Below, piece by piece: positions 379 through 18,346 of a DNA stretch of 18,346 nt. The stretch is from a virus (taxonomy: Duplodnaviria; Heunggongvirae; Uroviricota; Caudoviricetes). Location: positions 1 through 18,346 of the IMG/VR virus record IMGVR_UViG_2531839178_000019; one strand, written 5' to 3'. The notes under the pieces were generated by a model. It did not search any database and was not told where the DNA came from. It was given only the letters and a program-made list of their open reading frames with translations. Position 1 is the first letter of the stretch. Every line of letters starts with the position of its first letter. Made by a program: the position numbers and the translations under genes.

Positions 379-573
379 AGTGAATGGGGCTATCTCACCC
401 CATTTGCCGCTTTGCAGTTCCTGCCAGATTTGCTGCCCCGTCGGAGCGACATCATCAGCGGTGGCTGTGTAGGGGACTGCCTGGTCCCTGTCGTCAAAAA
501 AACGTCACAGTCTACTGCGCCACTTTCGGTATAACGGGGATTAATGATTTTTTTAATTTCCACGGTGCATTCC

Positions 574-1989
574 TCACGATGTGCGAATAAAAAGCCCGGG
601 CATTGCGCCAGAGACATGTGCATCCGGCACCCCGGACAGGGCGCAATATGACCCCGGTAATGAATGCTCTGAACATCCCGTAATGAAAAATTGTGGGGAT
701 GCTATATACGTTCCGGTGGGAGTACTGGGCACTGAAATCCCCACCGGTCCCAGTCGTGAGCCTCTGTATGACTGCCCCCTGACAAGTCTGATGACTTTAT
801 CACCGTCAGCTTCTCCCTGGTACGCAGCAATAATCAGCCCGCCAATGTCAGGGTCTCCCCATCTGTTGCGGACAGAGCTCGCCACGATTCTGTAAATAAT
901 ATCTTCTGTGGTTATATTTATTTTCACCCAGCCAGTCAGTCTGGATATGGGCCAGTAGCAGTAGCGGGTGTGATAAATGGGGCCGTTAATGCCGTAAAAA
1001 GTAAGGGATTTGGCTCTGTACCTCGGTTCTGTTGTCTCAGGGCGTGCATCAGTCCACCGGATGCTGAGCACCCCTTCAAACCGTGTGTCGGGTATGATGA
1101 TGTCGTAGGGGCCAGCAACGGAATATTCACCTGGCAGCGCATTCCTTACCCAGGCCAGGAAATCACTCTTAGTGTCAAAACGGATAACATCTTCAGGCAG
1201 AAAAGCACGCCCAAAGCCGAATGCGCCGGGTATCGCCAGACGGCCTTTTGTCCGGTCGTAAATGTCGCTCTGTGCTTCCATCGTGGCCGCACTTTTCAGC
1301 CCCAGATTATCCCGGGACTTCTGTTGTGCCTTTTCGCCTGCTGCTGCGATTTCTGACAGATGGTTAGCCATTTTCAGAGTGCCGGTCAGCGCAGCATCAA
1401 TGTCATTTTTGGCCTGTTCTGCTGCGCGGGCATAACCTGCGGCATCCTGTGCGCTCTGTCCGGCTGCGGCTGCATTTGCTCCTGTGCTTGTCACATCTTC
1501 CGCAGTGGCCTTTCTGTCCTCAGCTGTGACGGTTGCATCCTGTCGGGCTTTCTCCGCAAAACGTTGTGCATCATCACGGGCCGTTGCGGCTGCCGCCACA
1601 TCCTGCGCCGTCTGCTGTGCGTTTCCGGCTGCAGCCCCGGCACTCTGCTGCGCCTGCGCCACCATTTCCTCAAAGCGCTTCATCACCTCCGGACGTAAAT
1701 CACCATCCTTTGGTGCATTCAGAAACGCGTTCAGTGTCCCCGGTGCATCAGTCGGTGCCACATCAATATCCCCGACACGGGTTGGCTGCCAGCCGTTACA
1801 GTGAAGCGCAACCTCGTAATACCCCGGCTCAGCCTCAATCACATAAGCACCGTTATTGTCCGTCACGCAAGTGGCAACAACGTGTGCCACAACGGTCGGA
1901 CTGGTTCTTCTGGCCCGCAGTTCAATCGCACAATTTACGACAGGTTTACCCGCCCCATCTTTCAGTACACCTGAAATCTTTACTGCCAT
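574..1989 (-). CDS. Side tail fiber protein (Stf-like): conserved N-terminal domain, Ala/Gln-rich coiled-coil stalk, divergent C-terminal globular domain
   Basis: 471-aa ORF starting at ATG 1987-1989 (MAVKISGVLKDG...), preceded by GGGGTGA. The first ~100 aa match the N-terminal domain recalled for lambdoid Stf/StfR proteins. The track ORF start at 2031 is an upstream in-frame extension without an RBS. Confidence 0.8.
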   Translation of the reverse strand: MAVKISGVLKDGAGKPVVNCAIELRARRTSPTVVAHVVATCVTDNNGAYVIEAEPGYYEVALHCNGWQPTRVGDIDVAPTDAPGTLNAFLNAPKDGDLRPEVMKRFEEMVAQAQQSAGAAAGNAQQTAQDVAAAATARDDAQRFAEKARQDATVTAEDRKATAEDVTSTGANAAAAGQSAQDAAGYARAAEQAKNDIDAALTGTLKMANHLSEIAAAGEKAQQKSRDNLGLKSAATMEAQSDIYDRTKGRLAIPGAFGFGRAFLPEDVIRFDTKSDFLAWVRNALPGEYSVAGPYDIIIPDTRFEGVLSIRWTDARPETTEPRYRAKSLTFYGINGPIYHTRYCYWPISRLTGWVKINITTEDIIYRIVASSVRNRWGDPDIGGLIIAAYQGEADGDKVIRLVRGQSYRGSRLGPVGISVPSTPTGTYIASPQFFITGCSEHSLPGSYCALSGVPDAHVSGAMPGLFIRTS

Positions 1990-2000
1990 ATTCACCCCAC

Positions 2001-2026
2001 AAAAAGCCCGCCTGAACCAGCGGGCT
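2001..2026 (-). terminator. Rho-independent terminator downstream of lom (minus-strand RNA GCCCGC-loop-GCGGGC followed by UUUUU)
   Basis: Inverted repeat gcccgcc (2006-2012) / gcgggc (2020-2025) with an A-run at 2001-2005 on the plus strand, giving a U-tract on the minus-strand transcript. Confidence 0.6.
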
Positions 2027-2052
2027 GTCATAACACTGTGTTACCTGGCTAA

Positions 2053-2652
2053 TCAGAACTTATAACCGACACCCACGATGAAACCGTCAGTGCGCCAGTC
2101 GCCACTGCCGGAACCTTCATAAGCAAGGTCAATGGCCACGGATTCGGTCGGGTTAAACTGCACGCCAGCCCCCCACGCCAGAGACGTGTTGCTGTGGCGG
2201 TTGTCATCACTCCCGGTCAGCACATCGTGCGTTTTCCCCTTGTTGTCAGTTACGCGGAGATAATCCCCGGAGAAGGTCGACACACGGCTGTAAGCCACGC
2301 CCGCCATCGCATACGCGCTGAACCATTCATTCACGCGCACAGACGGCCCCGCCATCACGCTGAACCAGCGGTTACGCACGGAATCCTCATGCCAGCGGGT
2401 ATCGCTGTAATGCGTTTTTTGCTCATCTTCAGCGTTGGCATAGCTGAATGACGTCACCAGCCCCAGCGTGTCCGTAAACTCATAACGGTATTTCACGTTA
2501 ATGCCCTTCAGGTCATCGCTGCCTGGCATATCAGTATGGGGCTGAAGATACCCGGCGCTCAGCGTGGACTGATGTTCAGACGCCCATGCAGGCGCACCGG
2601 ATACAGCCAGACAGATGGCTGCGGACAAAATGGCTGCACAAACTTTACGCAT
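2053..2652 (-). CDS. lom: Lom family outer membrane protein (Ail/PagC/Lom beta-barrel)
   Basis: 199-aa ORF with a signal peptide (MRKVCAAILSAAICLAVSGAPAWA) and a C-terminus (YEGSGSGDWRTDGFIVGVGYKF) matching lambda Lom as recalled. It lies immediately after J, as in lambda. RBS GAGAGG upstream of ATG 2650-2652. Confidence 0.92.
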   Translation of the reverse strand: MRKVCAAILSAAICLAVSGAPAWASEHQSTLSAGYLQPHTDMPGSDDLKGINVKYRYEFTDTLGLVTSFSYANAEDEQKTHYSDTRWHEDSVRNRWFSVMAGPSVRVNEWFSAYAMAGVAYSRVSTFSGDYLRVTDNKGKTHDVLTGSDDNRHSNTSLAWGAGVQFNPTESVAIDLAYEGSGSGDWRTDGFIVGVGYKF

Positions 2653-2674
2653 AATTACCTCTCGCTTTTCTGCA

Positions 2675-2700
2675 ATAAAAAAGGCACCATTTCTGGTGCC
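2675..2700 (-). terminator. Rho-independent terminator between J and lom (minus-strand RNA GGCACC-AGAAAU-GGUGCC followed by UUUUUUAUU)
   Basis: Perfect 6-bp inverted repeat ggcacc (2683-2688) / ggtgcc (2695-2700) with an A-rich run at 2675-2682 on the plus strand. Confidence 0.65.
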
Positions 2701-2719
2701 CGTATCCGGGTTATAAAAT

Positions 2720-5700
2720 TCAGCTAATCGTGATGCCTGCAGTGGCTTTCTTCATCACAACAACCAGCAAATCGCTGATACTTGCTGTGGGATACCAGCC
2801 ATTTACCAGCCATGCCGATACAGAAAACTCCAGCGTCATGTGACCGTGACCGGCAGGCATATCAATAACACCCGTATATATCAGCGTATTATCCAGGGTC
2901 GTTCGGTTATAAATTTCGGCACCGTTTTTCTTCACTATCAGGCGGCATGACGAATAAATATTGTTATTCTTCCGCTCATGTTTAGCACCGCGAAACGCCA
3001 CCGCGGGAATAACAATTTGCCGATCAAACGGCTGATCGTCATAAACCCTGACGGTAATGGTCCCTGATGGCCACCTCTCCGGTGCCCGGGAGTCCCGTGG
3101 GAAAGGTTTGCCCACTGTTTTAACGAGATCGCCTTCAATCTGGTTCGCGGACAATTTTCCCAGAACCCGACAGTTCTTATTAATCGTGACGTTGTTGAGC
3201 GTCCCGGAGTTCGCGTTCACGTTACCGCTGATATCGGCATTTTTCGCCGTCAGCCGTCCGCCAGGTGTCAGGGAAAATGCCGGAGGATTACCGCCGCTGG
3301 TAATGGTCGGAGCCGTCAGGCGTTTCAGGAACACGTCGTTCATGAATATCTGATCGCCCTGACCAACAAACATCGGCTTTGTGTTGCCATTCGCAGGATT
3401 AATCATCGCAATCCTGTCTGCCGCCAGCAGCACCTGACTCTGCATTCCTGCTGGCGTATTCTCAATACCGGCACCGATACCCGCAATATAAAGGCGTCCG
3501 TCCTTCATCTGTTGCAGCTTCACAGCCCACATGCTGTTCAGGTTATTATTTGTATCAACCTGAACTTTCTGTATCTGCTGGATTGCAGCACTCTGATTTT
3601 CCAGTTTTTTATTGACGGTTTGCGTGATTTCATTGCTGACATTCGTAATGGACGTCCTGATTTCAGTCAGGTCCGGCGCAAGCTGACCGTTATCAATCTG
3701 CGTCCACAACTCCTTGCCGAGATGCGTTTTATTGATCAACCCTTTATAAAAACTCAGATAACCTTCCGCATCATCGCTCGCCCGACCGACGGCCTCCACA
3801 AATGCCGATTTGCCAACGGTGTTCACACTGCGAACGTAAAAATAATAATCATGGCCCGGCCTGATATTGATACTGGCGGCTATCCAGTACAGCGCCGTGC
3901 CAAGATAGCGGGCGCTGGTTTCAACCTGCCTGATATCCGAAATCCGCTTTTCCGAAAACCAGAACTCAAACTGCACCGTCGGGTCATATACAGCCAGTTT
4001 CGGGACCGCCGTTATCTGAAAATACCCCGGTATCAGTTCAATAGTGACAGGCGCTGCCGGTGCCGCAATCCGGAACGATACCGACGCCGGATCGCCCTGC
4101 TGCCCCCGGGCATTTACCGCCCGGACTGTCAGACTGTAATTCCCCAGCGCCAGCTGCCTGAAGCGGTATGTGGTTTCCGTCGTCCTGGCTGTGCTGACCA
4201 GCCGCTCACTGCCGTCGTCCGCTGCCACGGTCAGGCGAAGCAGGAAGCTCACACCCTTCACCACCTTCGGCGTGTCCCATCGCGCCAGCACCTGATATTC
4301 CCCGCTGTCTGCGGTGACTTCGGCGGTCAGATGCTGCACCGCTGGCGGCGTGACACCATTCACCGTGCCGCGCCGGTCACCGTCAAAGTGTGCCCCGTTA
4401 TCCACGATGGCCTCTTTTTCCGGCACATGCTGCACGGCGGTGATGGCATACGTGCCGTCGTCGTTCTCACGGATACTCACGCAGCGGAACAGGCGCTGGC
4501 GCAGCGTCGGCAGCTTCAGCCCCCACACGCTGTATTCTGCAACGCCGTCAGGAACCCGGCTCACTTTCACCTTCACGCCGTCGGTGACGGACTGAACCTC
4601 CACGCTGACCGGATTGCCATTTCCGTCAACCAGGCTTATCAGCGTGGTACCGGAGGACGGCAGCGTGATTTCACGGTCGAGCGTCAGCGTCCGGGTCTGG
4701 CTGTTCACCGCCAGTACGCGACCACCAGTGCTGATACCGGCATAATCATCATCGCAGATTTCAATGACATCACCCGGTACATGGCGAAGCCCTTCTGCGC
4801 CCACGCTGAAGTCCACGGTCTGCGTTTCCAGCAGTTCCGTTTTAATCAGCCACAGCCCGGCGCGGTGCGCCTGTCCCCGGCTGGTACAGCCAAAGGCATC
4901 CATCTTCGTGACGTTACGACCGTAACGGACAATGGCCTGCGTGTCCTCCACAAGCTCTGTCGCCGTCTCATGACCGTTGTCCGGATCAATCCAGTTCACC
5001 TCAACGACATTATGGCGGTCCTTCAGGGCGCTGAAGCTGTAGCGGAACGGCGCGCCATCATCCGGCATCACCACATTACTGCGGTTATAGGTCCACACTT
5101 TATCCGACGGTCGGTCCTGCACGAACGTCAGCGTCTGCCCGTTCCATACCGGCATACAGCGCATCGCCGAGCAGAAATCACTGAGAACATCCCACGCCTT
5201 ACGCTGTGTGGTCAGGTAAGCGTTACAGGTGATGCGCGGCTCCGTGCCGCCAAATCCGTCCGGCACTGACTGGTCGCAGTACTGGCCGATGACATACAGC
5301 GCCCATTTGTCCACATCTGCCGCACCAAGACGTTTCCCCATGCCGTAGCGCGGATGAGTGAGCATGTCCCACAGACACCAGGCCATGTTGTTGCTGTATG
5401 CTGGCTTAAGCGTTCCGTCCCAGATACCGCTGTATTGCCGCGTCTGCGGGTTATAGTTCGACGGCACCTGCAGAATGCGCCCGCGAAGATGATAATTGCG
5501 ACTCACCTGCTGGTTACCGAACTGCTCTGAATCCACCTGCACGCCGACCAGCGCCGTGTTCGGGTAGCACTGTTTCACATCGATGATTTCGGTGTACGAC
5601 GACCAGAGCGTTTTGTTCTGCAGCTGGTCTGTGGTGCTGTCCGGTGTCATCCTGCGCATCCGGATATTAAACGGGCGCGGCGGCAGGTTACCCACCACCA

Positions 5701-6199
5701 CCGAGGCCAGATACTGCGAAGTGGTTTTGCCCTTAATGGTGATGTCTTTTTCCGTCACCCAGCCACCGTTACGCTGTATCTGAACCAGCAGGCGGACTTC
5801 CGACGGATTCCGGTCCCCCTTTGAGGTGGTTTCCACCAGTGCCTGCACACCGAAGGTCAGGCGCAGACGATCAATGTTTGCCGACGTGATGGTCCTGGTG
5901 ATCGGCGTGTCGTATTTCACTTCCGTACCCAGCACAGTCTCTGAGCCGGAAGATTCAAACCCCTCCGGCGGTGTCTGCTCCTGCTCGCCGGCGCGGAACA
6001 CCACCGTAACACCGGAAAAGTTTGTCTTCCCCTCGCTGTCCAGGACCGGCGTACCGTTCAGCAGCACGCTTTTTAATCCATCCACCGGACCGTCAACCGG
6101 CCCTTCGCTGATGGCATCAATCACACTCAGCAACTGCGTGGATTTCAGGTTGTCCTTCGCTTCGCGCGGGGTATGCCCCTTACTGCTGCCTTTACCCAT
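2720..6199 (-). CDS. J: Tail tip / host specificity protein J (central tail fiber)
   Basis: 1159-aa ORF. N-terminus [34 protein letters not shown]... and most of the first ~950 aa match lambda J as recalled; the C-terminal ~200 aa diverge. RBS GAGG upstream of ATG 6197-6199. Confidence 0.95.
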
Positions 6200-6213
6200 T
6201 CCTCACGCTCCAT

Positions 6214-6240
6214 AAACGACAAAACCGCCCGCAGGCGGTT
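6214..6240 (-). terminator. Hairpin with U-rich tail in the I-J intergenic spacer (possible attenuator)
   Basis: 7-bp inverted repeat aaccgcc (6223-6229) / ggcggtt (6234-6240) with a 4-nt loop; the minus-strand transcript continues UUGUCGUUU. Confidence 0.3.
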
Positions 6241-6259
6241 TCACATAAAACATTTTGCA

Positions 6260-6901
6260 TCAGCGACCAATCACCACAACCTGACCACCATCCCCTTCGT
6301 CTGCCGTGCTGATCTCCTGAGATACCACCCGCGACCCCACGCGCATTTCACCGTACAGAACAGGCAGAACATTGCCCTGGGCAACCATGTTATCCAGTGA
6401 GGAGAAACAGGTGTTCTGTTTGCCGTTATCCGTTGTCTGTGTACGGGGAGTTCTGGCTTTCGGTGCCAGCATCTGTGCAACACCGCCAAGCGTCATACTG
6501 GCACCGAGAGAAAACAGCAGATTACTCGCCATAATTCCTACCCCCGGCATCCATATAGCAACCGCCATAACAGCTGCCCCCAGCACCGCCTGAAACACAC
6601 CGCCACTTTTAGCTCCCACCAGACGCGGTACTATGTGGATCACTGCACCATTTGCCAGCGGCTCATTAAGACGGGCAGACAATTCGGTTTCACCTGCATC
6701 ACGCCCGGCAATGCGCACCTGATACCAGCCGTCACTCAGTTTCTGACGAAACGCCGGGAGCTGTGTGGCCAGTGCGCGGATGGCTTCAGCCCCCGTTTTC
6801 ACACGAAGGTCGATGCGGCGGCCAAATCGTTGCAAATCCCCGTAAAGGCAGATGCGTGCCATTCCCGGTGACGCCAGAGGGAGTGTGTGCGTCGCTGCCA
6901 T
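6260..6901 (-). CDS. I: Tail tip assembly protein I
   Basis: 213-aa ORF whose N-terminus (MAATHTLPLASPGMARICLYGDLQRFGRRIDLRVKTGAEAIRALATQLPAFRQKLSDGWYQVRIAGRD) and C-terminus are near-identical to lambda I as recalled. Its 5' end overlaps the 3' end of K in another frame. Confidence 0.95.
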   Translation of the reverse strand: MAATHTLPLASPGMARICLYGDLQRFGRRIDLRVKTGAEAIRALATQLPAFRQKLSDGWYQVRIAGRDAGETELSARLNEPLANGAVIHIVPRLVGAKSGGVFQAVLGAAVMAVAIWMPGVGIMASNLLFSLGASMTLGGVAQMLAPKARTPRTQTTDNGKQNTCFSSLDNMVAQGNVLPVLYGEMRVGSRVVSQEISTADEGDGGQVVVIGR

Positions 6902-7542
6902 TTGTCGGTATACCTCTCTCGTTTACTCAGTTGTTCAGGAATATGGTGCAGCAGCTCACCATCGCCGCAGTAAATGGCGGCATGATTCGGCACCGATGAA
7001 CCAAAACAGCACAGCAGCACATCGCCCGGTTGTGCTGATGACAACGGCACCTGATACAGCCCTGTGGCCTCCAGATTATCCAGATAGAGATTCTGACCGT
7101 GACGCCACCAGTCATCCCCGCGATGAAAATCCGGCATCTCAATCCCCGCCAGATGATAAGCATCCCGGAACAGCGTGTAACAGTCCGTCACCCCGTGCTC
7201 AAAGCGCCGCCCGGTGAGATGCGGCACACAGCGGAACTTGTGAATCGCCCCCCGGCAGACCAGCCACCACGGCAAATCACTCTGCACCTGCAGCCGCCGG
7301 TCAGCCTCACTCAGCCAGGGCAGACCACCGGGATGACTGTGGACCAGTGCCACAATCTCACCCTGCATTTGTGCCCGCAGCCAGTCCTCCGGAGCCATCC
7401 GGAACCGTTCCTCCGGCTCACCGGAGATATTCTCGCTGGGAAGATACCTGTCTCCCTCCGGCGTTCTCACCACGAAGCCACACGACTCCGCTGGCGCACA
7501 TCGCCGGGCGTGCGCCAGAATCGCTGATTCTGTCTGTGTCAT
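6799..7542 (-). CDS. K: Tail tip assembly protein K (JAB/MPN and NlpC/P60-like domains)
   Basis: Start taken at ATG 7540-7542 (MTQTESAILAHARRCAPAESCGFVV...), 4 bp after the L stop. HSHPGG (JAB-like) and Cys/His motifs are present. The track ORF start at 7806 is an upstream non-ATG extension that would overlap L. Confidence 0.9.
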   Translation of the reverse strand: MTQTESAILAHARRCAPAESCGFVVRTPEGDRYLPSENISGEPEERFRMAPEDWLRAQMQGEIVALVHSHPGGLPWLSEADRRLQVQSDLPWWLVCRGAIHKFRCVPHLTGRRFEHGVTDCYTLFRDAYHLAGIEMPDFHRGDDWWRHGQNLYLDNLEATGLYQVPLSSAQPGDVLLCCFGSSVPNHAAIYCGDGELLHHIPEQLSKRERYTDKWQRRTHSLWRHREWHASAFTGICNDLAAASTFV

Positions 7543-7546
7543 GGAT

Positions 7547-8245
7547 TTACTGAGAAAGTTTATTGATGGAAAGGAAACCGCCGAAATTACCGGTATTGTT
7601 GCGCAACTCACACCCGCGCATACACTTGCTGCATTTGTCCTTCCGGATATCCGTCGTTGGTTTGTCGAACTCGTCAGCCACTGCCCTGCCCGTGTAACCA
7701 CACTCATCAGAACGGTAAGTCCACATACAGGTATTCGCCAGCATGATACGCCCCGGGAAAACCGCGCCATCCGTCTCCGTTGGTGTGGCCAGCACAAAAG
7801 AGGCACTGACCGCGCTCAGTTCGCTGCACTGCTCGATGCGCCAGCGGCTGATCACCTCCTGTTCCGGATCGGCGTCGCTGTTTCCGTTGACGAAGTTCAC
7901 CGCATCCAGAAAACGGGCGTAAACCTTACGCCGGACCACCGTTCCGCCGACCAGACTCTGCAGATCTTCCGCCATCCCGGTGACCATGCCGTGCAGGTTA
8001 GAGACCGTCAGTGTCGGACGGGCAGCACAGCCCCTGCCGTTCAGTTCAAACCCCGACCCCTGAATGGGGTATGCCTGATACTGCCGCCCCTGCCAGGTGA
8101 CCGGCTCACCTTTTTCGTTCTGCTCATTACAGAAAAAATAACGCTCACCACCGACCTCTGTCAGATCGATTTCCCAGAGCTCCACCCGGGCTGACTGCTC
8201 CGCACGGGTGCATTCATTCAGTGTTTCCTGCCGGATATCCTGCAT
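7547..8245 (-). CDS. L: Minor tail protein L
   Basis: 232-aa ORF, the same length as lambda L and highly similar as recalled. Its start overlaps the M stop (ATGA). Confidence 0.95.
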   Translation of the reverse strand: MQDIRQETLNECTRAEQSARVELWEIDLTEVGGERYFFCNEQNEKGEPVTWQGRQYQAYPIQGSGFELNGRGCAARPTLTVSNLHGMVTGMAEDLQSLVGGTVVRRKVYARFLDAVNFVNGNSDADPEQEVISRWRIEQCSELSAVSASFVLATPTETDGAVFPGRIMLANTCMWTYRSDECGYTGRAVADEFDKPTTDIRKDKCSKCMRGCELRNNTGNFGGFLSINKLSQ

Positions 8246-8574: not shown

Positions 8575-11500
8575 TACCGGTATGCTCCACTTAACCGGCC
8601 ACCATCACGGGCCTGCTGTTGCATAAAGTCCGCGGCCGCTTTTTTCCCGAGGTCATAAACCACCTTCAGGGCAGCCGGACCTATCTGCCCGTTCGTGCCG
8701 TCGTTATTGATCTCAATGTTGTACTGCGGGGCAAACATCACCATGCCTGAACCACCAGTATCCGCCACAACCCCCAGCTTACCATCAGCACCGCGACGCA
8801 GTGGCAGAATGGCTTCAGGTCCCGCTTCCCCCATCACACCCGCGCCTTTTGCAAAAGCAAAAAACGTCGGACGGTTAACCACCGTGCCACTGTAGCGACT
8901 CAAATCAGCAGACTGGTAAACACCGCCATCAGCATTAGTCGTGAAGCCGAATAAAGAACCGACGCCCTTTACCGCCTGCATCATGGCCATCTGTGCCATA
9001 ATTCTGGCCATATCTGACAACAGGGAAGAGGTGAAGGATTTAAAATTCAGCTTACCGGTGGTACAGAATGTCGCCAGTGCATTACCGGCACTGCTGAATG
9101 CCACTGTAAACATCTGTTCTGCCGTTCCCGCCGCATTATCCGCATCCGCCGTAAAATTCTGAAACGCCCGCATGGCACCGTTTTTCCAGTCGCCCTGCGC
9201 CACTTCCAGTTCCTGCCAGTAGCGTTTGTTTTCATTCAGTTGTCGCTTCAGGCTCCCCTTCAGCACCTCCTCAGCCCTCCGGTAGTCCTCCGTCCCGTAA
9301 GTGCCTTTCTGGCGACTGTCATTCTCAAGCTGTTGCAACTGTTGCCGGTATTCCTGCCGGATGCGCAACTGTGCCTGGTAGCGCTGCCGCTGCTTATCCC
9401 CCATACCTGCAGTGGCAATATCCAGATTGTGCTGCTCACGCAGTGCACGTTCTTTGTCTGCCAGCTGGCTGGTCAGCTGAACCGTTTTTTTCTCAGGTCG
9501 TTAAGCGCTGTCTGTTTCTGCAGCTCCTGCTGTTTCACATCCAGCAGCGTCAGCGCCTGAATCAGCTCATTCTTACGGGCCAGCACACTCTTTTCATCTG
9601 CCGTCAGCTTTTTCCCGTCCAGGTCGCTGATGCGCTGCTGCAGGGCCAGAAGCTGTTTATGCGCTTCAGTCATCCTTTCAGTGGCAATGCCTGCTGACTG
9701 TCTGGCAGCAGCAATCTGCCCTTCCACCTGTGCCTGCTGCTGACTGTACTGCAGCAATAACCGGGTGGCCTCATCATTACGGGTTGCCCGTGTATTTTTC
9801 TTAATGGCTTTTTCGTAACGTTCATTTTCACGCTGTATCGCCGCATCCCTGACAGCCTGGTCGGCGTACTGCATGGCATTAATACGCGCAATTTCCCGCT
9901 GATGTCGTGCAGCTTCCGTTTCATTCATCCGGTTCAGCGCGGCATTTTCAGCATTCCGGCGTTTCTGTTGCTCCTGGTAATTCCGTTCTGCCTGCGCTTT
10001 TGCATCCTGCAAATCCTTCCGGCGTTTTTTCTCCTGAAGATCGTTAAGACGCTGCTGATCGTACTCCACCTGTGTGGAGGCGTTTGTCCACGGATATTTT
10101 TTCGCGCGCTGAATTTTTTCCTGTAACGCATCAATCTGCGCATCCAGCGAGTCTTCACGACCAATATTCATGGCCGCATCCCAGAACTGCTTCCACCAGT
10201 CAGACAAGGTTTGCAGCGTACTACCCAGCGCATTGAGATTATTATCAATATCAGATGTGCGTTTACCGGTTTCCTCTGCCAGCGCAGACATGGCGATCCG
10301 GGCCGCATCACTGGACCGCCCCTGCTCCCCAAGGACGCGTATCTGCTCAAGCTGAGTGGCAGTCAAAAAATGCAGCGCATTGTCCAGCGCCTTCGCGGCA
10401 TTTACAGGATCATCCTTCAGCCGCTTAAACTGATTTATGGTATCGCTGACCGACTGGCCAACCGATCGCTCCATCTGTGCGGCAGCTTTCGCCACCATAC
10501 CAATATCGTTTCCATGAAATGCCCCACTGCCCACCACCTGTGCCAGCGCACCGGCTGCCGCATGTTGCGTGATACCATTCCCGGATATGGCCCGGCTGAG
10601 TTTCCACAACTGCCCGACAGTGACACCGGCATAATGTCCCGTCAGCGCCAGCTGACGGTTAAATTCCTCGCCCTCCTTCCGGCCGTCATGCCAGGCTTTA
10701 CCCAGACCCAGGACCGCCGCGACAAGTCCGCCAATAACGCCGCCAGTCATCATGCCTTTCGGCGACATCAGTGCGCCTGTCCATCCGGCACGGTTAGCCA
10801 GCGTTATCCCGGATCCCCTCAGCGCACCAAAATTGCCGCGCGCCATCTGACTGATTAACACCCCCAGCTCCCGCCGGGCTGCCGCACTTTTCAGCCCCAG
10901 CGAATGTGTGGCTTTTCCTGCCCGCTCCATTTTGCGGATATACACTTCTGCAGCACTGCTTACCCCCAGCTGAGCCGCCCTGGCGCGAAGCAACTCAGAA
11001 GACGACAGATTCTGGCGGGTTGCCTGCTCTTTAAGCTGGCGGATAAACGCCGCTTTCTGCCGGGTGGCCTGTTCCTCTGCCTGCGTCAGGGCACGGGTTT
11101 TCGCCGTGATCTCCGAAATCAGCGCCAGATAATCCTGCTGACCAACCCCGCCACTGTTTCTGGCCTGTCGGATCTGCTGCTGAATACGCTGTAATTCCTG
11201 AAGCCCCGCACCGGCCTGTTTCACACTGTCAATCTGGCGATAAAAGGCGGCAGCCGCTTTATCCTGCGCCTCCGCCAGTGCCCTGGCCTGCGCCTGTTCC
11301 TCGCGCATTTTCTGATTCAGGGCATCCACGCGCAGACGGGTTTGTTCCACCTCACGGGCCATGCGTTCATGAGCCCGTGCATTCTTCTCCACCGTCTGCG
11401 CATGGGCTGATGCTGCTGTTGCAGCCGAAGAAGCCGCCTGCATTGTCTGCCGGGCCGCCTGAGTCTGACGCTCCATAAAACGCTGCATACGGGCAGAAGA

Positions 11501-11614
11501 CCGTTCTGCATCGCTGGCTGCACCATTCAGAAGGTTTTTGATACGGGGAATTTCATTTTTAAACTCTGCCGCATCAATCCCCAAATCAATGACCAGGTTG
11601 GCTATCTGGTCCAT
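8574..11614 (-). pseudogene. H: Tail tape measure protein H, reading frame interrupted at an A7 tract (coding strand; plus-strand T7 at 9485-9491)
   Basis: N-terminal ORF from ATG 11612-11614 (MDQIANLVIDLGIDAAEF..., RBS GGAGGTG) stops at 9473-9475. The C-terminal 276-aa ORF (8574-9404) ends ...NNDGTNGQIGPAALKVVYD..., matching the lambda H C-terminus as recalled, and its frame is open upstream back to 9500. The two frames meet exactly at the A7 run. Confidence 0.85.
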
Positions 11615-11915
11615 AACGCACACCTCCGGAAATACCTTCCCCAAGATGCATCAGTTCTTCGTCCGTTCGCTCCGGTATCCCGTTCTCTTCCGGTAAAAGG
11701 CTGAAATCAGCCACCGCAGCATCGCTGCTGCCGGACACCATTCTCACGATCAATGCCTTCAGCGAGGCAAACTGCGCATCCATCCACACATCACTGAAGC
11801 TCTGCATCCGGAAATAATCGCCCCACTCACCAAGCTCAGTGGCCGACATATCCGACAGCATCCGCCGCCAGTCTGCCCGCCGGAACTCCCGGGCAAGCCG
11901 CATGACAAACTGCAT
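11586..11915 (-). CDS. T: Tail assembly protein T, the -1 frame extension expressed as the G-T fusion
   Basis: 109-aa ORF in the -1 frame relative to G; its frame is open upstream to 11948 and overlaps the G 3' end. G-T-H gene order as in lambda. Confidence 0.8.
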   Translation of the reverse strand: MQFVMRLAREFRRADWRRMLSDMSATELGEWGDYFRMQSFSDVWMDAQFASLKALIVRMVSGSSDAAVADFSLLPEENGIPERTDEELMHLGEGISGGVRYGPDSQPGH

Positions 11916-11923
11916 TTCCCGCG

Positions 11924-12310
11924 TCAGGACTTTTCCGGCGTCAGCGCCTCATGATCATCATCCCCGGCATTCTCAATGGTCCCCATACCGCTCAGCGACA
12001 GAACCCTCTCCGCCCCCGCGCCCAGCGCATCATACGACCATGTTGTCATAATGGATGCGCAAAGCGTCTCAACATCCTGAGACTGCTCAGCATTCCACAG
12101 TGAGCGGGAAACCAGCCAGGCATTGATATCCATTCCCATACGCAGAAAAGCAATCTGTCGTTCAGCCTCCGGCAGTTCTCCCTCCTGTGCATCAAACTTT
12201 GCCGTTCGCTGCTGAACAAACGTCAGATATTCAATTCTCTGCAGCCCGGACAGCTCACTGAGCACCACGGACTGTTTTTCATAATTAAACGTATCCTGTT
12301 TCAGAAACAT
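11924..12310 (-). CDS. G: Tail assembly chaperone G
   Basis: Start taken at ATG 12308-12310 (MFLKQDTF...SELSGLQRIEYL), resembling the lambda G N-terminus (MFLK...SELSALQRIEHL) as recalled. GGAG lies 6 nt upstream. Confidence 0.85.
   Translation of the reverse strand: MFLKQDTFNYEKQSVVLSELSGLQRIEYLTFVQQRTAKFDAQEGELPEAERQIAFLRMGMDINAWLVSRSLWNAEQSQDVETLCASIMTTWSYDALGAGAERVLSLSGMGTIENAGDDDHEALTPEKS
11930..11936 (-). other. Putative -1 ribosomal frameshift site for the G-T fusion (coding strand G_GAA_AAG)
   Basis: This is the only slippage-prone sequence inside the 33-nt G/T frame overlap (11916-11948). The lambda site recalled is G_GGA_AAG. Confidence 0.5.
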
Positions 12311-12325
12311 CATGTTCTCCGGATG

Positions 12326-12349
12326 CAAAAAGCCCCGGATAACCGGGGC
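12326..12349 (-). terminator. Rho-independent terminator/attenuator between V and G (minus-strand RNA GCCCCGG-UUAU-CCGGGGC followed by UUUUU)
   Basis: Perfect 7-bp GC-rich inverted repeat (12332-12338 / 12343-12349) with an A-run at 12327-12331 on the plus strand. Confidence 0.65.
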
Positions 12350-12368
12350 AATGATGAGTATCGTCCTG

Positions 12369-13052
12369 TTATGGTGCGCTGACGGTCACCGCAGCCACTG
12401 CCACAAACTCTCCGTCAGAGGTCATGCCCACGATGCTGACACTGCCCTGCTTCACGCCTTTCACCGTGGCCACAAGCCCGCTCAGGGTCACCGAAGCAGT
12501 CTGAGGATCTGACGAATGCACACTGATCGCTTTGACACTGACAGATGCCGGTGCCACCGTCAGTCCGGTAACACCCACGGTTTCAGCGCCCTCCTCTGCC
12601 AGATACGGACGCCCCACACCGCTGATTTTTACAGTACGGGTCATCACCTCTTTTGAGGTAATGGTTTTACCCAGAGAACTCAGCCAGCCACGGAAAACAT
12701 CAACCGTACCGTTGGGGTATTTGATACGAAACGCGCAGACTTCACCGGAATCGAACAACTGAACCAGTTTTTTCTGCCCGCTGTCACCCGGACGCCAGGC
12801 CAGCGTCGCCAAAGTATCACCGACGGATTTCTGCCCCTGGGTTGTCGTTTTCCAGTCTGCATCTTCATCATCGAGATAAGTGTCATCTTCTGCATCAGCG
12901 GTCATTTCGCCAGGTTGCAGATCCTTCACCATCGCAAGACGCAGCCAGTCAGTGTCCGACAAAGGGTTCGCAAACGCATCGCCCTTGCCGGTGTACATCC
13001 AGAACGTCGTTCCCGCACCTTTCGTTTTTGCCAGTGGATTTGGTGTGGTCAT
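12369..13052 (-). CDS. V: Major tail protein V
   Basis: Start taken at ATG 13050-13052 (MTTPNPLAKTKGAGTTFWMYTGKGDAFANPLSDTDW...), homologous to lambda V as recalled. Strong RBS AAGGAGGT 6 nt upstream. The track start at 13127 is an upstream extension overlapping U. Confidence 0.92.
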   Translation of the reverse strand: MTTPNPLAKTKGAGTTFWMYTGKGDAFANPLSDTDWLRLAMVKDLQPGEMTADAEDDTYLDDEDADWKTTTQGQKSVGDTLATLAWRPGDSGQKKLVQLFDSGEVCAFRIKYPNGTVDVFRGWLSSLGKTITSKEVMTRTVKISGVGRPYLAEEGAETVGVTGLTVAPASVSVKAISVHSSDPQTASVTLSGLVATVKGVKQGSVSIVGMTSDGEFVAVAAVTVSAP

Positions 13053-13062
13053 TGCCACCTCC

Positions 13063-13476
13063 TTAATTCGTGTACGTGATCTGGTACGTGATTTCCGCCA
13101 TCGCCCAGGTGGCCATCTCATTATCACGTTGATAGTTAAAACCGAGTGGGTTCATGGTGTCGATGAGTCCGGAAAATGCAGGTACATCATTCAGGGCCGG
13201 GAAAATGGTGCTCTCCATCCACATATCCAGCTCTGAATCCGGTGCCTGTGCCCGGATGAAGACGGCAATATGCAGAACAGCCTGCCAGTCATCTTCATCC
13301 GTCATTTTTCCGGTGTACTGAGCATCACTCAGCCACACCGCCACGGCAGGCAGTTCCTGCGCATCAATAAATGCCGGAAGCCCGTCAAAAAACGTGGCGC
13401 TGTCTCCACACTGTTCCCGAAGGCGTGCCAGTACGACCTGGCGGATCTGTGTATGTCGGTTCATCGGGTCAGCCAT
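13063..13476 (-). CDS. U: Minor tail protein U (tail terminator)
   Basis: 137-aa ORF with ...ATFFDG.PA..D..E.PAVAV.L....YTG......W...LHI.VF..AQ.PDSELD.WMES..., matching lambda U as recalled. Confidence 0.9.
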   Translation of the reverse strand: MADPMNRHTQIRQVVLARLREQCGDSATFFDGLPAFIDAQELPAVAVWLSDAQYTGKMTDEDDWQAVLHIAVFIRAQAPDSELDMWMESTIFPALNDVPAFSGLIDTMNPLGFNYQRDNEMATWAMAEITYQITYTN

Positions 13477-14045
13477 AACCTCAGTTGTTGTTTCAGTGCA
13501 TACCCCAGCTGTTTCGGCATTTCCGCAGCAATGATGCGGTCGCGGGCATCTTCAAATGCCTGTGTCAGCGGTCCGGACAGCGGGATTTTCACCACATCAA
13601 TGGGGTAACGATTTTTGCCGTCAATACGCCGCATCACATGCCAGCGACCATTCGCCAGTTGCTGAATAAACGCATCCCGGAAAAGGTATTTCCCCACTTT
13701 CAGTACGCTGCCACGATGACGTGAGTTGCTGCCATGCCGGGAGCGGGCCAGTCTGACCTGTGCGGTACCCAGCTTAATGGCGGGCAGGTTACCCCGGTTA
13801 ACACGCATGCGGGCATACATTTTTCCTGAGGGGCTGGCTTTAAGCAGCCTGACACGCTCCCTGACCGTTTTCAGGGGAATACCTTTCACCTGGTTATCCC
13901 CGGCAACGGTATTCTGCGCAACCTGCCGTGTGGCGACAGAAATAATCTTTGCCGCCACACGGTTTACCGCCCATGCGCTGGCCTGTGGCACCATGCGGGT
14001 ATCGAGGCTGTTCAGATTATGGATGGCATTCTCAAGCCCCTTCAT
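13461..14045 (-). CDS. Z: Tail completion protein Z
   Basis: 194-aa ORF (MKGLENAIHNL...FIQQLANGRWHVMRRIDGKNRYPIDVVKIP...LGYAL), homologous to lambda Z as recalled. RBS AGAGGTG. Overlaps the U start. Confidence 0.85.
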   Translation of the reverse strand: MKGLENAIHNLNSLDTRMVPQASAWAVNRVAAKIISVATRQVAQNTVAGDNQVKGIPLKTVRERVRLLKASPSGKMYARMRVNRGNLPAIKLGTAQVRLARSRHGSNSRHRGSVLKVGKYLFRDAFIQQLANGRWHVMRRIDGKNRYPIDVVKIPLSGPLTQAFEDARDRIIAAEMPKQLGYALKQQLRLWLTR

Positions 14046-14056
14046 CCCACACCTCT

Positions 14057-14332
14057 TTACTCAATAAAGATCATTGGTTTACCGTTAAAGCGTTCATGCC
14101 GTGTGACCGTCCATTGTTGTCCGTCATAAACAACGCGGTCCCCGCGCCGTGGGCGGTATCCCGAAGAAAACACCACCAGAGAGACCGCCGGTCCGGACAG
14201 AGCGTTCAGCTCTGCCAGAGTTTCTCCCGGGAGCACAGGCATATAAACATCATTAATCGAGGCCATCTTTCCCATCTTTCTGACCGTGATCGCATCCATA
14301 CGCGCTGCCTGCCGGGAAAAGGGATCAGACAT
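14057..14332 (-). CDS. Head-tail joining protein (FII-like)
   Basis: 91-aa ORF directly upstream of Z; the C-terminal segment ...RRGDRVVYDGQQWTVTRH... resembles the lambda FII ...RRGDTLTIGEENFWVDRV... region as recalled. Confidence 0.6.
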   Translation of the reverse strand: MSDPFSRQAARMDAITVRKMGKMASINDVYMPVLPGETLAELNALSGPAVSLVVFSSGYRPRRGDRVVYDGQQWTVTRHERFNGKPMIFIE

Positions 14333-14648
14333 TGAGTTTTACCGGCACTTCTTCTGCACCAGCTCCGGCATCTGCCCAGACAACCCCGACCAGCGGATCA
14401 GAGCCGCTGTTAGTCAGCTGAACTTTTCCGGACTTCAGAAAAACCTTCTTACCCGTTTTCATGTCATCCGTTTTCAGCTTAGGCAGCATAAACACACCTT
14501 CGGTCAGGCCGTCGCCTGTTTCACCCTGTGGAATATCGGTCAGCGCCACCGCAAAAACATCACCCACCTGCACCAGATCTCCGCTGCTGATGGCTGCACT
14601 GGCAACAATCGCCACCGTTTTTCCTTCTTCTACAAAATTCTTTGCCAT
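14325..14648 (-). CDS. DUF2190-like phage structural protein (possible head decoration/cement)
   Basis: Start taken at ATG 14646-14648 (MAKNFVEEGKTVAIV...), GGAGA 5 nt upstream. Size (~107 aa), the Gly/Val-rich pattern and position next to the capsid gene fit this family. The track start at 14693 is an upstream extension. Confidence 0.6.
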   Translation of the reverse strand: MAKNFVEEGKTVAIVASAAISSGDLVQVGDVFAVALTDIPQGETGDGLTEGVFMLPKLKTDDMKTGKKVFLKSGKVQLTNSGSDPLVGVVWADAGAGAEEVPVKLNV

Positions 14649-14691
14649 AACTGTCTCCGCACAGCCCCGTTCAGGGGCTGATTTCAGGTAC

Positions 14692-14710
14692 AAAAAAAGC
14701 CCTTACGGGC
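14692..14710 (-). terminator. Hairpin (GCCC-GUAA-GGGC) followed by U7 downstream of the capsid gene; a second 6-bp hairpin (14664-14680) follows without a U-tract
   Basis: Short GC stem with a GNRA-type loop at 14699-14710 and an A7 run at 14692-14698 on the plus strand; lies between the capsid stop (14735) and the next start (14648). Confidence 0.45.
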
Positions 14711-14734
14711 CATCAGAGTTGTTGTCTGCGACGT

Positions 14735-16535
14735 TTACGCCGTACATTTCACCAGGCCGCGGTGATCAACTGGCGCAACACCGGCGTCAATACGCACTTT
14801 CGTTGTCACGCCATCCACACTGAAGCCCTCCATCTGATCAATATATGGCGTATCCACACCGTTGAGATAAGCCACTTCAATCGTATCGGAGCCTTTGGAC
14901 GCAGCCAGGTAGAAGGTGGTCTGGCTGTTATCATCAAGACGAGGCTCTGCAATAACGGTCGCAAAATCTTTCACCGGGTTAATAATACCGGCGTTAATGT
15001 CAGCCCCCTTGACACTTGAGGAGCGAATGACCTGGTTAGCAACAGACTCCATCGCCGTCGGTACCAGTACGAACGCAGGACGAATATTCAGATGACGCTC
15101 CCCCTCTTTCTGAACACGCATCAACTGGCGGGCTTTATCCAGCGATGCCACGTCCATTGCAGCGCTCTCCAGTACGTTTGCATGTTTCGCTTTATCGAAC
15201 AGACTTACATTATCTGTGGAGATTTTCGGGTTAGACGTCAGAATGGCATAAACCAGATCGGCAATAGTGGATTTCGCCGCACGGCCCAGTTTCATCGGGA
15301 CATCGGTCAGCATATTCAGATCATCGTTGATAATGGCCTGACGGGTGATACTGAACAGTTCACCATAGGTCGCCAGTGCAATCGTGGCCTGTTTATCTCC
15401 GGTAGTAACGTATTTATATTCCGCCCCTTCACGCACCTGACGCAGAGCACTGAAGCCCCCCATACCCACACGATGGGCAATTTTAAAATCAGACAGCTGA
15501 CCTTTCCGCGTCCACTGTTCATAGGTTTCAGGGGCATCTTCCCAGCCCTGCAGAATGGCTTTGTTCGCAACATCCAGCAGAATATTACCGAAGTCAGACG
15601 TACTGTGTGTGAACGCCGCACCGACCATCTGCATCGGGTTATAACCGGAAACCCCAATACCCCGTTCAGTCAGTGACATACGGGCATATTCACGCAGGGT
15701 CATCCCGTTGTAGACATTATCACGTTCAGTTTTTTCAAACCCGGCACGCGCCATCAGCGCCTGGCGGATCCCGTCCCCCACAAAATTACCGTTTCCGGCA
15801 TAAATATGGGCCGGGGTATTTTTATTTGATGGTGAAAATTCCTTACCCATTTCGTTAAGTAATTTCTCACGGGCCTGCTCAAGCGAGCACTCCGGCTCGG
15901 AAAGACAACTGGCCTGCAATGTCTGATAACGCCCGCCAAACATACCAAACAGTTCATTAATACCACTCACACGTGCTTTTTGCTCTGCCAGTACCTGCGC
16001 ACGGATACTGCTTTCATCTGCGGAAGGTGCATTTGTGGTGGTCACGGTTGTGGCAACCTGAGCCGTAGTCTGCTCCTGTGTCTGAGATGCAGTATTTTTG
16101 TTTTCAGGTTCACGCGTTGCACTGTTGCGTGGCGGAGTAATCATGTTTCGAATGGATTCCGGCATCTTTTTAAATTCCTCTGTACGTTTTGACTGAATAC
16201 ATGCCATTGCCTTAACGGCTGGCGTCACCTGATCAGCAAATCCATGTGCCAGACATTCGGCACCGGACATCCAGGTCTCATCCGCCAGCATGGCAGCAAC
16301 TTCATCGGTGGTTTTCCCGGTTTTCTGTGCATAAGCGGGTAACAGAACCGCCTCAACTTTATCGAGCAGGTCGGCATAGGTGCGCATGTCCTCCGCATCA
16401 CCGCCCGTAAAGCCAAATGGTTTATGAATCATCATGAAGGTGTTTTCCGGCATAATGACCGGGTTTCCCACCATCGCAATGACCGACGCCATTGATGCCG
16501 CCACACCGTCAACATAAACGGTAATGGACGCACCA
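14735..16535 (-). CDS. Prohead protease (ClpP/S49-like, C-terminal part) - scaffold linker - major capsid protein fusion; 5' end truncated by IS600
   Basis: Long ORF with the peptidase motif ...VYVDGVAASMASVIAMVG... near its 5' end, a Thr/Gln-rich linker and a capsid-like C-terminal domain. The reading frame runs upstream into the IS600 terminal sequence, so the track start at 16561 is a GTG inside the IS. Confidence 0.6.
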
Positions 16536-16862
16536 TGAGGTAGCCTGAGTTTAACGGACACTCCTTCCTGAAATAGAATGGCATCAGAAGGAGCTAATAA
16601 TGAGCAGAAAAACCCAACGTTACTCTAAAGAGTTCAAAGCCGAAGCTGTCAGAACGGTTCTTGAAAATCAACTTTCGATCAGTGAAGGCGCTTCCCGATT
16701 ATCCCTTCCTGAAGGCACTTTAGGACAATGGGTTGCCGCCGCCAGAAAAGGGCTCGGTACTCCTGGTTCCCGCACGGTGGCTGAACTGGAATCTGAAATT
16801 CTGCAACTGCGTAAGGCGTTAAATGAAGCTCGCCTTGAGCGAGATATATTAAAAAAAGCAAC
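16536..16862 (+). mobile_element. IS600-like (IS3 family) element, left ~327 bp only, interrupted by IS30
   Basis: Begins TGAGGTAGCCTGAG... about 64 bp before the orfA ATG (16600-16602), a layout typical of IS3-family left ends. The orfA product MSRKTQRYSKEFKAEAVRTVLENQLSISEGASRLSLPEGTLGQWV... matches IS600 OrfA as recalled. The left boundary is approximate. Confidence 0.7.
16600..16862 (+). pseudogene. IS600 orfA, 5' fragment (first ~88 codons), truncated by the IS30 insertion
   Basis: The helix-turn-helix OrfA sequence stops making sense after ...LERDILKKAT at the IS30 terminus (16863); the track ORF to 16950 reads through into the IS30 inverted repeat. Confidence 0.8.
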
Positions 16863-18083
16863 TGTAGATTCAATCTGTCAATGCAACACCCCTTTCAATT
16901 ATCTCTTTCGGTGTTTTGAACTTCAGTGTCTTTCTCGGTCTGTTGTTTAGCTGAGCAGCAACCAGATCTAGTTCATGTTGAGTATATTGGGCAAGACATG
17001 TCTTTTTAGGAAAGTACTGCCGAATTAGCCCATTTGTGTTCTCATTTGTTCCCCGCTGCCAAGGACTCTGAGGATCGCAGAAGTAAACTTTAACGCCGGT
17101 GCTGACAGTAAATTCTAGATGTCTGGCCAGTTCCATTCCTCTGTCCCATGTCAGCGATTTTCTGAGTTCTGACGGTAAACTCAGGAATTTGTCGGTAAGA
17201 GCCTGATTTACTGAGACAGTAATCTTTGCCCCTGAGTCTAAGGATGATCGTATAACGTGATTTTCGGTCTACAAGTGTGGCTATATGAGAGTTTTTGTAC
17301 CTGAGACTAAATCGCCCTCCCAATGCCCCAGAGAGCGTCTGTTATCGATATTTCGGGAACGTTCGTGAATTGGTGTTCCGTTCACTATGTTAATCGTACC
17401 TCTTTCGCCTTTGCGGGTATGACGCCTGCCATGGCGAAGGCTATGCGACCGTCGCAGATGCTGTATATTCAGGTGGTGTAGCGCTTCACGGCTACGAAAG
17501 TACAGCGTTTTATAAATTGTCTCAGGTGATATTCGCAGCGTTTTTTGACGTGGTTTTGTTCGCCTTAACCATCCTGATATTTGCTCTGGAGACCATTTCA
17601 TCTCCAGCTTTTCCAGAACAAGCTTTCGCAATGGTAAATTTTGATCCAGTAAGCACGGTTTTGGCCTTTTCGCCATTCTGTTGGCTCGGTTATTAGCATC
17701 AACAGCTTTGTAATAGCGTCTGCCCCGATTACGCTGAACTTCACGTGAGATCGTCGAAGGACTGCGATTCAGCGCAGTAGCTATCGCACGAATGCTCATT
17801 TTGGCTGACAAACCAGCTCGTATCTCCTCGCGCTCAGACAGTGTCAGGTGAGCTACAGCCCGCTTACGCTCATGGGGTTTTATGCCGCCAGTATCCCTTA
17901 ACATAGTGAAGATCGTTCCGGGTTTTGAACCCAGGATATTCGCTATTTCACTGAAGCCTGTTCCGTTCTTCCATAGTTCAAAAACAGAGGCTTTTTCCTC
18001 TGCTGTAAATGTTCGTCTCATTCAAAAAACCTCCGCGACCCCATGTTTTCACATAACTGTTGCGTTGACCAATTGAATCTACA
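16863..18083 (-). mobile_element. IS30, complete length (1221 bp) with imperfect ~25-bp terminal inverted repeats
   Basis: Termini TGTAGATTCAATCTGTCAATGCAAC (16863-16887) and reverse complement of 18059-18083, TGTAGATTCAATTGGTCAACGCAAC. Encodes an IS30-family DDE transposase on the minus strand. Confidence 0.9.
16870..18021 (-). pseudogene. insI: IS30 transposase, split into three ORFs by two compensating 1-bp indels
   Basis: ORFs 17281-18021 (MRRTFTAEEKASVFELWKNGTGF..., HTH), 17090-17323 (...NSHIATLVDRKSRYTIILRLRGKD...) and 16870-17136 (MELARHLEF...DPQSPWQRGTNENTNGLIRQYFPK...) together read as one IS30 transposase as recalled. Frame changes occur near the T5 run at 17292-17296 and near 17220. 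Confidence 0.8.
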
Positions 18084-18346
18084 GTTGCTTTTTTAATATA
18101 TCTCGCTCAAGGCGAGCTTCATTTAACGCCTTACGCAGTTGCAGAATTTCAGATTCCAGTTCAGCCACCGTGCGGGAGCCAGGGGTACCGAGCCCTTTTT
18201 CTGGCGGCGGTAACCCATTGTCCTAAAGTGCCTTCAGGAAGGGATAATCGGGAAGCGCCTTCACTGATCGAAAGTTGATTTTCAAGAACCGTTCTGACAG
18301 CTTCGGCTTTGAACTCTTTAGAGTAACGTTGGGTTTTTCTGCTCAT
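18084..18346 (-). mobile_element. Second IS600-like fragment (orfA 5' part) in inverted orientation, continuing beyond the window; orfA frameshifted
   Basis: Reverse complement of 18084-18346 is identical to 16600-16862 except for 3 substitutions and one extra A (A5 versus A4), which shifts the orfA frame after ...WVTAARK. The orfA ATG is at 18344-18346. Confidence 0.8.

Follow-up and report, generated by a model that had tools for sequence, protein, structure and literature searches.

Frame breaks at the prophage locus

The window analysed here, by which we mean the whole stretch of 18,346 nucleotides held in the IMG/VR virus record IMGVR_UViG_2531839178_000019, carries the tail half of a lambdoid prophage on its minus strand, as judged from annotated E. 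coli loci and Pfam matches, together with a block of the insertion sequence (IS) elements IS600 and IS30 at its right end. Over positions 1-16199, the window is 100% identical to AKNA01000051.1, a contig of 49,137 bp from the 2012 draft assembly of Shigella boydii 965-58 (GCA_000268145.1); position x of the window corresponds to position 30607 + x of the contig, and the window ends 184 bp short of the contig end. The prophage adjoins an ipaH gene at the yecD/aspS locus. Several genes in this window are split by single-base indels, and these frame breaks are probably, although far from certainly, for the most part an artefact of sequencing or assembly. The affected features are listed below (ORF, open reading frame; aa, amino acids).

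1-623, minus strand: DUF4376-domain gene, broken into two pieces, of which one is an ORF of 77 aa (390-623) and the other, C-terminal one was called as 121 aa (1-366)
8574-11614, minus strand: tape measure gene H, split into a 713-aa ORF (9473-11614) and a C-terminal ORF (8574-9404 or 8574-9266)
16536-16862, plus strand: left end of IS600 with the 5' part of orfA, 99.7% identical to annotated IS600
16863-18083, minus strand: IS30, 1221 bp, with the transposase in three ORFs, 99.7-99.8% identical to annotated IS30
18084-18346, minus strand: inverted duplicate of the left part of IS600 (orfA 5' region), abutting the other end of IS30

A first-pass annotation, made from the sequence alone, had pointed to five sites at which the frame changes. 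When the window was aligned to related loci, all five were present where they had been reported, and a sixth indel, at 18089-18094, was found to have been overlooked. The six sites are as follows.

496-502, gene on the minus strand: run in the DUF4376-domain gene, A7 on the plus strand (T7 on the gene strand), 8 in relatives
9485-9491, gene on the minus strand: run in H, T7 on the plus strand (A7 on the gene strand, codon ~708), 8 in relatives
17220, minus strand: extra T in IS30, outside any homopolymer, a +1 change at codon ~268, absent from the references
17292-17296, minus strand: run in IS30, T5 where intact IS30 has T6, a -1 change at codon ~242
18089-18094, minus strand: second run in the right IS600 copy, T6 on the plus strand (A6 on the gene strand), A7 in the left copy and all references
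18196-18200, minus strand: run in orfA of the right IS600 copy, T5 on the plus strand (A5 on the gene strand), 4 in the left copy and all references

Five of the six indels thus lie inside mononucleotide runs, and each of the five alters the length of its run by one. Runs of at least four bases cover 6.7% of the window, and the probability of finding at least five of six indels within them by chance is p ~ 8e-6. The clustering of the indels in runs is not due to chance; nonetheless, both polymerase slippage and flow-based sequencing error predict such clustering, and it therefore does not separate the two. No run of eight or more bases occurs anywhere in the window, and its other 7-base runs (548-554, 14692-14698, and 16851-16857) are equal in length to those of the relatives that cover them. 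Each of the frame breaks that had been described in four unrelated genes is therefore present, but they cannot be treated as one phenomenon, because the T5 allele of IS30 recurs in many other assemblies.

Comparison with the nearest relative

A J protein exactly matching that of the window was found in only one other assembly, the 5.1-Mb contig PSSP01000001.1 of S. boydii (GCA_002968135.1; hereafter PSSP). PSSP and 965-58 share the prophage and its locus, as well as the point at which IS600 interrupts the capsid gene and an IS110 insertion in yecD. At the sites matching those considered here, PSSP has A8, T8, G5, T6, A7, and T4, and its H and DUF4376 proteins are 1013 and 207 aa long, respectively. 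Over 17.7 kb, the 965-58 contig differs from PSSP by three indels, every one of which is a one-base shortening of a run in 965-58 (at A8, T8, and G5), and by five isolated substitutions plus a patch of 14 single nucleotide polymorphisms (SNPs) at 88-340. Indeed, about 10 single-base indels were counted in the ~41 kb of 965-58 sequence examined (contigs AKNA01000051.1 and AKNA01000047.1), against a handful of isolated substitutions; namely, A8 to A7 (in both prophage copies), T8 to T7, G5 to G4, T6 to T5, the extra T at 17220, A7 to A6, T4 to T5, and, in an ipaH gene, T5 to T6 and T to TT. The lesions in H and in the DUF4376-domain gene were, furthermore, seen in this draft alone out of hundreds of cluster members, the lesion in H being present also in the Logan assembly of SRR059778.

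Some of the listed indels lie outside the window. The G4 in place of G5 falls in the loop of a hairpin downstream of the DUF4376-domain gene, 116 bp left of the window start (10482-10510 of locus L010), and is found in AKNA01000051.1 only; the copy of this GC-rich hairpin on AKNA01000047.1 and those at five related loci outside the 965-58 assembly have G5. Relative to the PSSP ipaH copy with which it aligns, the ipaH gene on AKNA01000047.1 (3555-3563 of locus L011) has an additional base at each of two places 8 nt apart (T5 to T6, and T to TT). These insertions probably explain why the gene was called as a pair of ORFs, of 422 and 138 aa, and the case resembles a further frame break linked to a homopolymer in this assembly.

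The tape measure gene H

The product of H has Pfam matches to TMP_2 and TMP_4 and then to Tape_meas_lam_C. When one base is added at 9485-9491, the gene encodes an H protein of 1013 aa identical to a protein (P0003) known from 117 Shigella contigs; since the repaired H is the allele on those 117 contigs, there is no other decay in the gene. The run at 9485-9491 is T8 at four related loci (L001, L002, L007, and L008) and T7 at a fifth (L025), which is the prophage of strain FDAARGOS_944. In complete E. coli genomes, eight bases were found at 24 of the 25 places where the run occurs, the exception again being FDAARGOS_944 with T7. The 713-aa fragment of H is on record only for AKNA01000051.1 and the Logan contig SRR059778_272.

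The A8 tract in H, which is shortened in both 965-58 and FDAARGOS_944, might be a natural slippage hot spot at which H is repeatedly split after residue ~708 in cryptic prophages of Shigella and enteroinvasive E. coli (EIEC), with the 713-aa N-terminal product or the Tape_meas_lam_C fragment perhaps being kept for a function in the host; we regard this idea as highly improbable.

The DUF4376-domain gene

The gene at 1-623 had been labelled as Tfa-like, but the addition of one base at 496-502 gives a 207-aa protein with a match to PF14301, and the gene is hence a DUF4376-domain gene. It is annotated as intact, with 207 aa, at three related loci (L001, L002, and L025), and the alignment places a one-base gap at 496-502 relative to these and two further loci (L007 and L008), all five of which have A8. 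In nine complete E. coli genomes, the run is eight bases long at all of its 48 places. The 121-aa fragment is on record from the 965-58 assembly only, in which it occurs on two contigs; indeed, a second prophage remnant in this assembly, on AKNA01000047.1, also has seven bases in the run, and both of the copies in PSSP have eight.

The two copies of 965-58 are identical over 227-1069 and have a common haplotype over 88-340 except at position 226. In the 14-SNP patch that separates the window from PSSP at 88-340, one haplotype is found in both 965-58 copies and the other in both PSSP copies, which, as far as sequence comparison can tell, indicates either gene conversion between paralogous prophages or import of the tract. 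The occurrence of A7 in both copies was considered as strong proof of a systematic error but was downgraded, because gene conversion could explain it equally well.

Could the two A/T tracts instead be functional switches, i.e., sites of programmed frameshifting or phase-variable contingency tracts that control the expression of H and the DUF4376-domain gene? One genuine programmed -1 site, the A7 of IS600, is indeed present in the window, and the run in H differs in length in two of the related prophages seen. Relatives, however, encode H and the DUF4376 protein as single uninterrupted ORFs with 8-base runs, and in complete genomes the in-frame length is found at 48 of 48 and 24 of 25 places for DUF4376 and H, respectively; an out-of-frame length occurs at 0 of the 48 and 1 of the 25, which is not the frequent polymorphism of a phase-variable tract. 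An in-phase heptamer with overlapping ORFs in relatives, as would mark a programmed frameshift, was found for the A7 of IS600 only and not for H or the DUF4376-domain gene. Also, the shifted frames of H and the DUF4376-domain gene stop after 5 and 35 codons and provide no alternative product. Such a switch can thus be given almost no credence.

The block of IS600 and IS30

At the right end of the window, IS30 is inserted in orfA of IS600, 5 nt downstream of an A7 tract (16851-16857). This A7 is a programmed -1 heptamer; in an intact copy of IS600, a -1 shift there yields an OrfAB protein of 385 aa, which matches the annotation on record. The segment at 18084-18346 aligns in reverse to 16600-16862 and in the forward direction to the segment composed of IS30 and the left part of IS600 at three related loci (L004, L009, and L011). 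What had been taken for the orfA of a second IS600 on the right is, therefore, no ordinary second IS600 but repeats the left end of IS600, in inverted orientation, on the other flank of IS30. It was also noticed that IS30 occurs at exactly one site of IS600 (window 16851-16868 and 18078-18094; loci L003, L004, L009, and L011), in the orientation opposite to that of IS600 in E. coli PC6 and in that of IS600 in FDAARGOS_536, PSSP, and AKNA01000047.1. These aligned copies suggest that IS600 may harbour a strong target hot spot for IS30.

When both indels in IS30 are reversed, a transposase of 383 aa identical to that of the PSSP copy is obtained. The indels shift the frame by -1 and then by +1, so that the frame is regained after 25 codons with two stops in between; being opposite in sign and 76 nt apart, they leave the total length of the element at the canonical 1221 bp. 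In the right IS600 copy, too, one indel offsets the other (+1 and -1), for which we see no explanation other than coincidence.

The T5 allele of IS30 is not confined to 965-58: its 246-aa product turns up in several contexts, on 243 contigs in all, and the allele is found with C as well as with T at 17326, some of its carriers having many other homopolymer deletions. When a 141-base query spanning T5 and the extra T was compared with complete E. coli genomes, 28 of the 3,868 matching records aligned at 99.3% over 140 bases with one gap, and we read these 28 as T5 without the extra T, an assignment that base-by-base comparison bears out for PC6 only. A full 141-base match, i.e., T5 together with the extra T, was found in 0 of the 3,868 records, and the extra T at 17220 was seen in none of 15 aligned IS30 copies.

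The arrangement of the block is also peculiar to the window. In PSSP, the locus reads IS600-left, IS30 (with an intact 383-aa transposase and in the orientation of IS600), IS600 orfB, the ClpP N-terminus, and the portal gene, and, compared with this order, the window has IS30 and the IS600-left segment that follows it the other way round. The order of IS600-left, IS30, and inverted IS600-left was found neither in PSSP nor in any of 5,426 complete E. coli genomes. Its left junction, between IS600-left and the right end of IS30, matches a composite of opposite orientation near hchA in E. coli PC6, which also has T5, and its right junction matches the S. boydii type. The block is one of two things: a misjoin of two IS600::IS30 copies caused by their repeats, or an inversion specific to this strain. 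A simple fold-back at the contig end was rejected, since IS30 is of full length and the left junction contains bases specific to the right end of IS30.

Differences are far denser in this part of the window, with four indels and four substitutions in the 1.8-kb IS tail against two and two in the 16.2 kb of unique prophage DNA, and all four IS indels are confined to the last 1.2 kb ahead of the contig end, where the bases are the least trustworthy in the window. The insertion in IS600 and the indel of IS30 outside a run had been put forward in the first-pass annotation as a weak argument for at least some real mutations; this argument does not hold up, because both sites are in those last 1.2 kb, in multi-copy IS DNA and in an arrangement found nowhere else.

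The recurrence of T5 and the two types of junction also raise the possibility of a mixed origin, in which the change of T6 to T5 in IS30, and possibly the T7 in H, would be real, with the A7 in the DUF4376-domain gene, the G4, the T at 17220, and the indels in the right IS600 being consensus errors at a chimeric contig end. The T5 allele is indeed documented across many assemblies and contexts, and a left junction of the PC6 type (with T5) next to a right junction of the S. boydii type suggests that two different copies of IS600::IS30 were joined. The presence of T5 on both 17326 backgrounds and in several carriers with many homopolymer deletions means, nonetheless, that some of the T5 calls elsewhere are probably errors themselves. 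We consider a mixed origin improbable.

Layout of the prophage

Read from the left of the window, the genes of the prophage are the DUF4376-domain gene, a gene with a tail fibre N-terminal domain, Lom, J, I, K, L, M, the tape measure gene H, the G/T chaperones, V, U, and Z; these are followed by two small head-tail genes and then by one further feature.

14735-16535, minus strand: 3' part of a gene for a ClpP-protease/major-capsid fusion, cut by IS600 at 16535/16536

In its full length, as at locus L001, this fusion gene has 2061 nt, and PSSP has the identical truncation together with an identical ORF of 608 aa. Because IS600::IS30 splits the ClpP/capsid gene, which is also split in this nearest relative, the prophage is dead whatever the status of the indel sites. 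The Shigella-like setting with a cryptic prophage that had been proposed from the sequence was thus borne out, the source being S. boydii 965-58 and the prophage having been killed by IS600::IS30.

Some further features of the tail genes were noticed. The major tail gene V has a 57-nt in-frame deletion at 12528-12540 relative to E. coli relatives (227 vs 246 aa), which is bounded by a 13-nt direct repeat; this deletion is found also in PSSP and is therefore real. In the tail fibre gene, a -4/+1 difference at 1100-1109 (net 3 nt, in frame) distinguishes the window from L001, L002, and L025, and PSSP has it as well. In a look-up of exact proteins, the 485-aa tail fibre protein had PSSP as its sole match. 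The ORFs of the G and T tail assembly chaperones (11586-12310) are in the usual two-frame arrangement; the GGGAAAG heptamer of lambda is absent from this region, and the end of G reads CCGGAAAAGTCCTGA. No exact protein is on record for the ORFs at 18161-18346, 16600-16950, 1-378, and 390-623.

Origin of the frame breaks

Either homopolymer length errors in the assembly or slipped-strand decay of a cryptic prophage had been offered in the first-pass annotation as the origin of the frame breaks, and for H and the DUF4376-domain gene the evidence leans to the former. We lean in this direction because the two lesions are confined to a single draft, because the runs are eight bases long in PSSP, because the alleles are otherwise identical, and because the changes are shortenings only. 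The contig end of the 965-58 draft would, then, carry a lambdoid prophage tail region that had already been killed by IS600::IS30 in the capsid gene, and the breaks in H and the DUF4376-domain gene would most likely be due to calls one base short in the region's only two A/T runs of eight bases. The length error would be at the level of the platform and already present in the reads, and both genes would be intact in the strain. The indels in IS30 and the right IS600 would also be consensus errors, in multi-copy IS DNA near a contig end, and the inverted IS join would probably be a repeat-induced misjoin or a low-coverage consensus. A possible exception is the change of T6 to T5 in IS30, which is a recurrent allele elsewhere. 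We infer the sequencing chemistry as the cause of the length errors; the date of the draft and contigs that span IS elements lead us to suspect 454 as the platform.

Several points weigh against an artefact. As to the platform, no literature naming strain 965-58 was found, and a paper on the sister strain CCH060 gives no method for the earlier drafts. PSSP lacks an IS4 insertion and shows a backbone divergence of ~4e-4; since it lacks this insertion, it is a different strain, and strain-specific mutations in 965-58 are possible. The prophage is already defective, and there is, consequently, no selection on H and the DUF4376-domain gene. The A7 shared by the paralogous copies of the latter could, judging from the haplotypes at 88-340, stem from gene conversion. 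An A7 between rsmF and yebT, which is A8 in E. coli RM8352, was dropped as a candidate for an under-call in the backbone, because A7 is the allele in 2,916 of 5,422 E. coli genomes.

The lesion in H calls for particular caution. The Logan contig SRR059778_272 is identical to the window over 6473-14614, T7 included; T7 is therefore the majority read call in SRR059778 and not a slip of the assembler. If SRR059778 is an Illumina data set, the frameshift in H is real. In addition, a prophage of 98% identity in FDAARGOS_944, at the ybhB locus (NZ_CP065613.1, 4360552-4389026), has T7 in H, and in this prophage H, a tail fibre gene, and a DUF1441 gene are all annotated as frameshifted. The cleanly aligned single-base indels of FDAARGOS_944 relative to the window are all deletions (T8 to T7, A6 to A5, C4 to C3, AA to A, and A7 to A6 in IS600), four of the five lying inside runs, and they represent either real decay or homopolymer error of long reads. 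The T7 of FDAARGOS_944 was accordingly rejected as a decisive confirmation from an independent platform: it belongs to a different prophage, in which every clean indel is a deletion and four of the five are in runs.

Several of these points, with others, favour real slipped-strand mutation, by which the A8 and T8 tracts would have been shortened after IS600::IS30 had killed the prophage, gene conversion would have spread the lesion of the DUF4376-domain gene, the IS copies would have decayed, and the inversion would be IS-mediated. The T7 of H was reproduced from raw reads by an independent assembler and occurs also in H of FDAARGOS_944, a gene that has more decay, with further one-base deletions; the capsid gene is destroyed in both strains, and selection is thereby relaxed; the T5 of IS30 recurs on 243 contigs, with 28 complete-genome records that read as T5 lacking the extra T; and the concerted haplotype at 88-340 points to gene conversion between the prophage copies. 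Shigella genomes are, furthermore, known for the accumulation of pseudogenes. Real slippage would, nonetheless, require that both 8-base runs, the G5, and the paralogous copy were all shortened against only about five isolated substitutions in 17.7 kb, and slippage of 8-base runs in repair-proficient E. coli, as known from mutation-accumulation data, is too rare by orders of magnitude at this divergence. There is no second lesion in H, the repaired IS30 transposase is that of the PSSP copy, and no other assembly of the lineage has inherited the lesions in H and the DUF4376-domain gene. Also, the IS indels are crowded together near a contig end, within a structure that is seen nowhere else. We therefore regard slippage as a serious but rather unlikely explanation, and retain an artefact as the probable one.

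In practical terms, the value of these observations is a quality flag on this assembly. If the frame breaks are artefacts, pseudogene counts, calls of prophage integrity, and inferences on IS activity made from this draft, and probably from the sister drafts of its batch, would be inflated. The inverted join of IS600, IS30, and IS600 needs confirmation before it is accepted as a real rearrangement. Real indels, for their part, would amount to routine decay of an already dead prophage and would add nothing new on the reduction of Shigella genomes. The finding is ordinary under either reading.

Comparison with known systems

Three known systems can be compared with the window. The programmed -1 frameshifting of IS3-family elements is represented by the A7 of IS600 (16851-16857), which is in the correct phase for a legitimate change of frame, but it explains none of the listed breaks; IS30 cuts IS600 only 5 nt downstream of the heptamer, and the right copy has A6.

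Pseudogenes formed by slippage in cryptic prophages of Shigella share with the window a Shigella host, a defective and IS-laden prophage next to ipaH, and frameshifts in A/T tracts; indeed, the related prophage of FDAARGOS_944 carries several such lesions. In contrast to those pseudogenes, however, the lesions of the window are not common to its nearest relative or to other assemblies, no other decay is seen in the genes, and the ratio of indels to substitutions is far above that of usual biological divergence.

Miscalls in flow-based sequencing (454 or Ion Torrent) differ from the window in that the indel at 17220 is not in a run and in that the call in H was reproduced by a second assembler, so that the bias would have to be systematic and at the level of the reads; that the platform was of this kind here is our inference. 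The window nonetheless resembles such data in its single-base indels within runs, with the longest runs (of eight bases) affected in otherwise perfect genes, in the dominance of indels among the differences from a close relative, and in the piling up of errors at repeats near a contig end.

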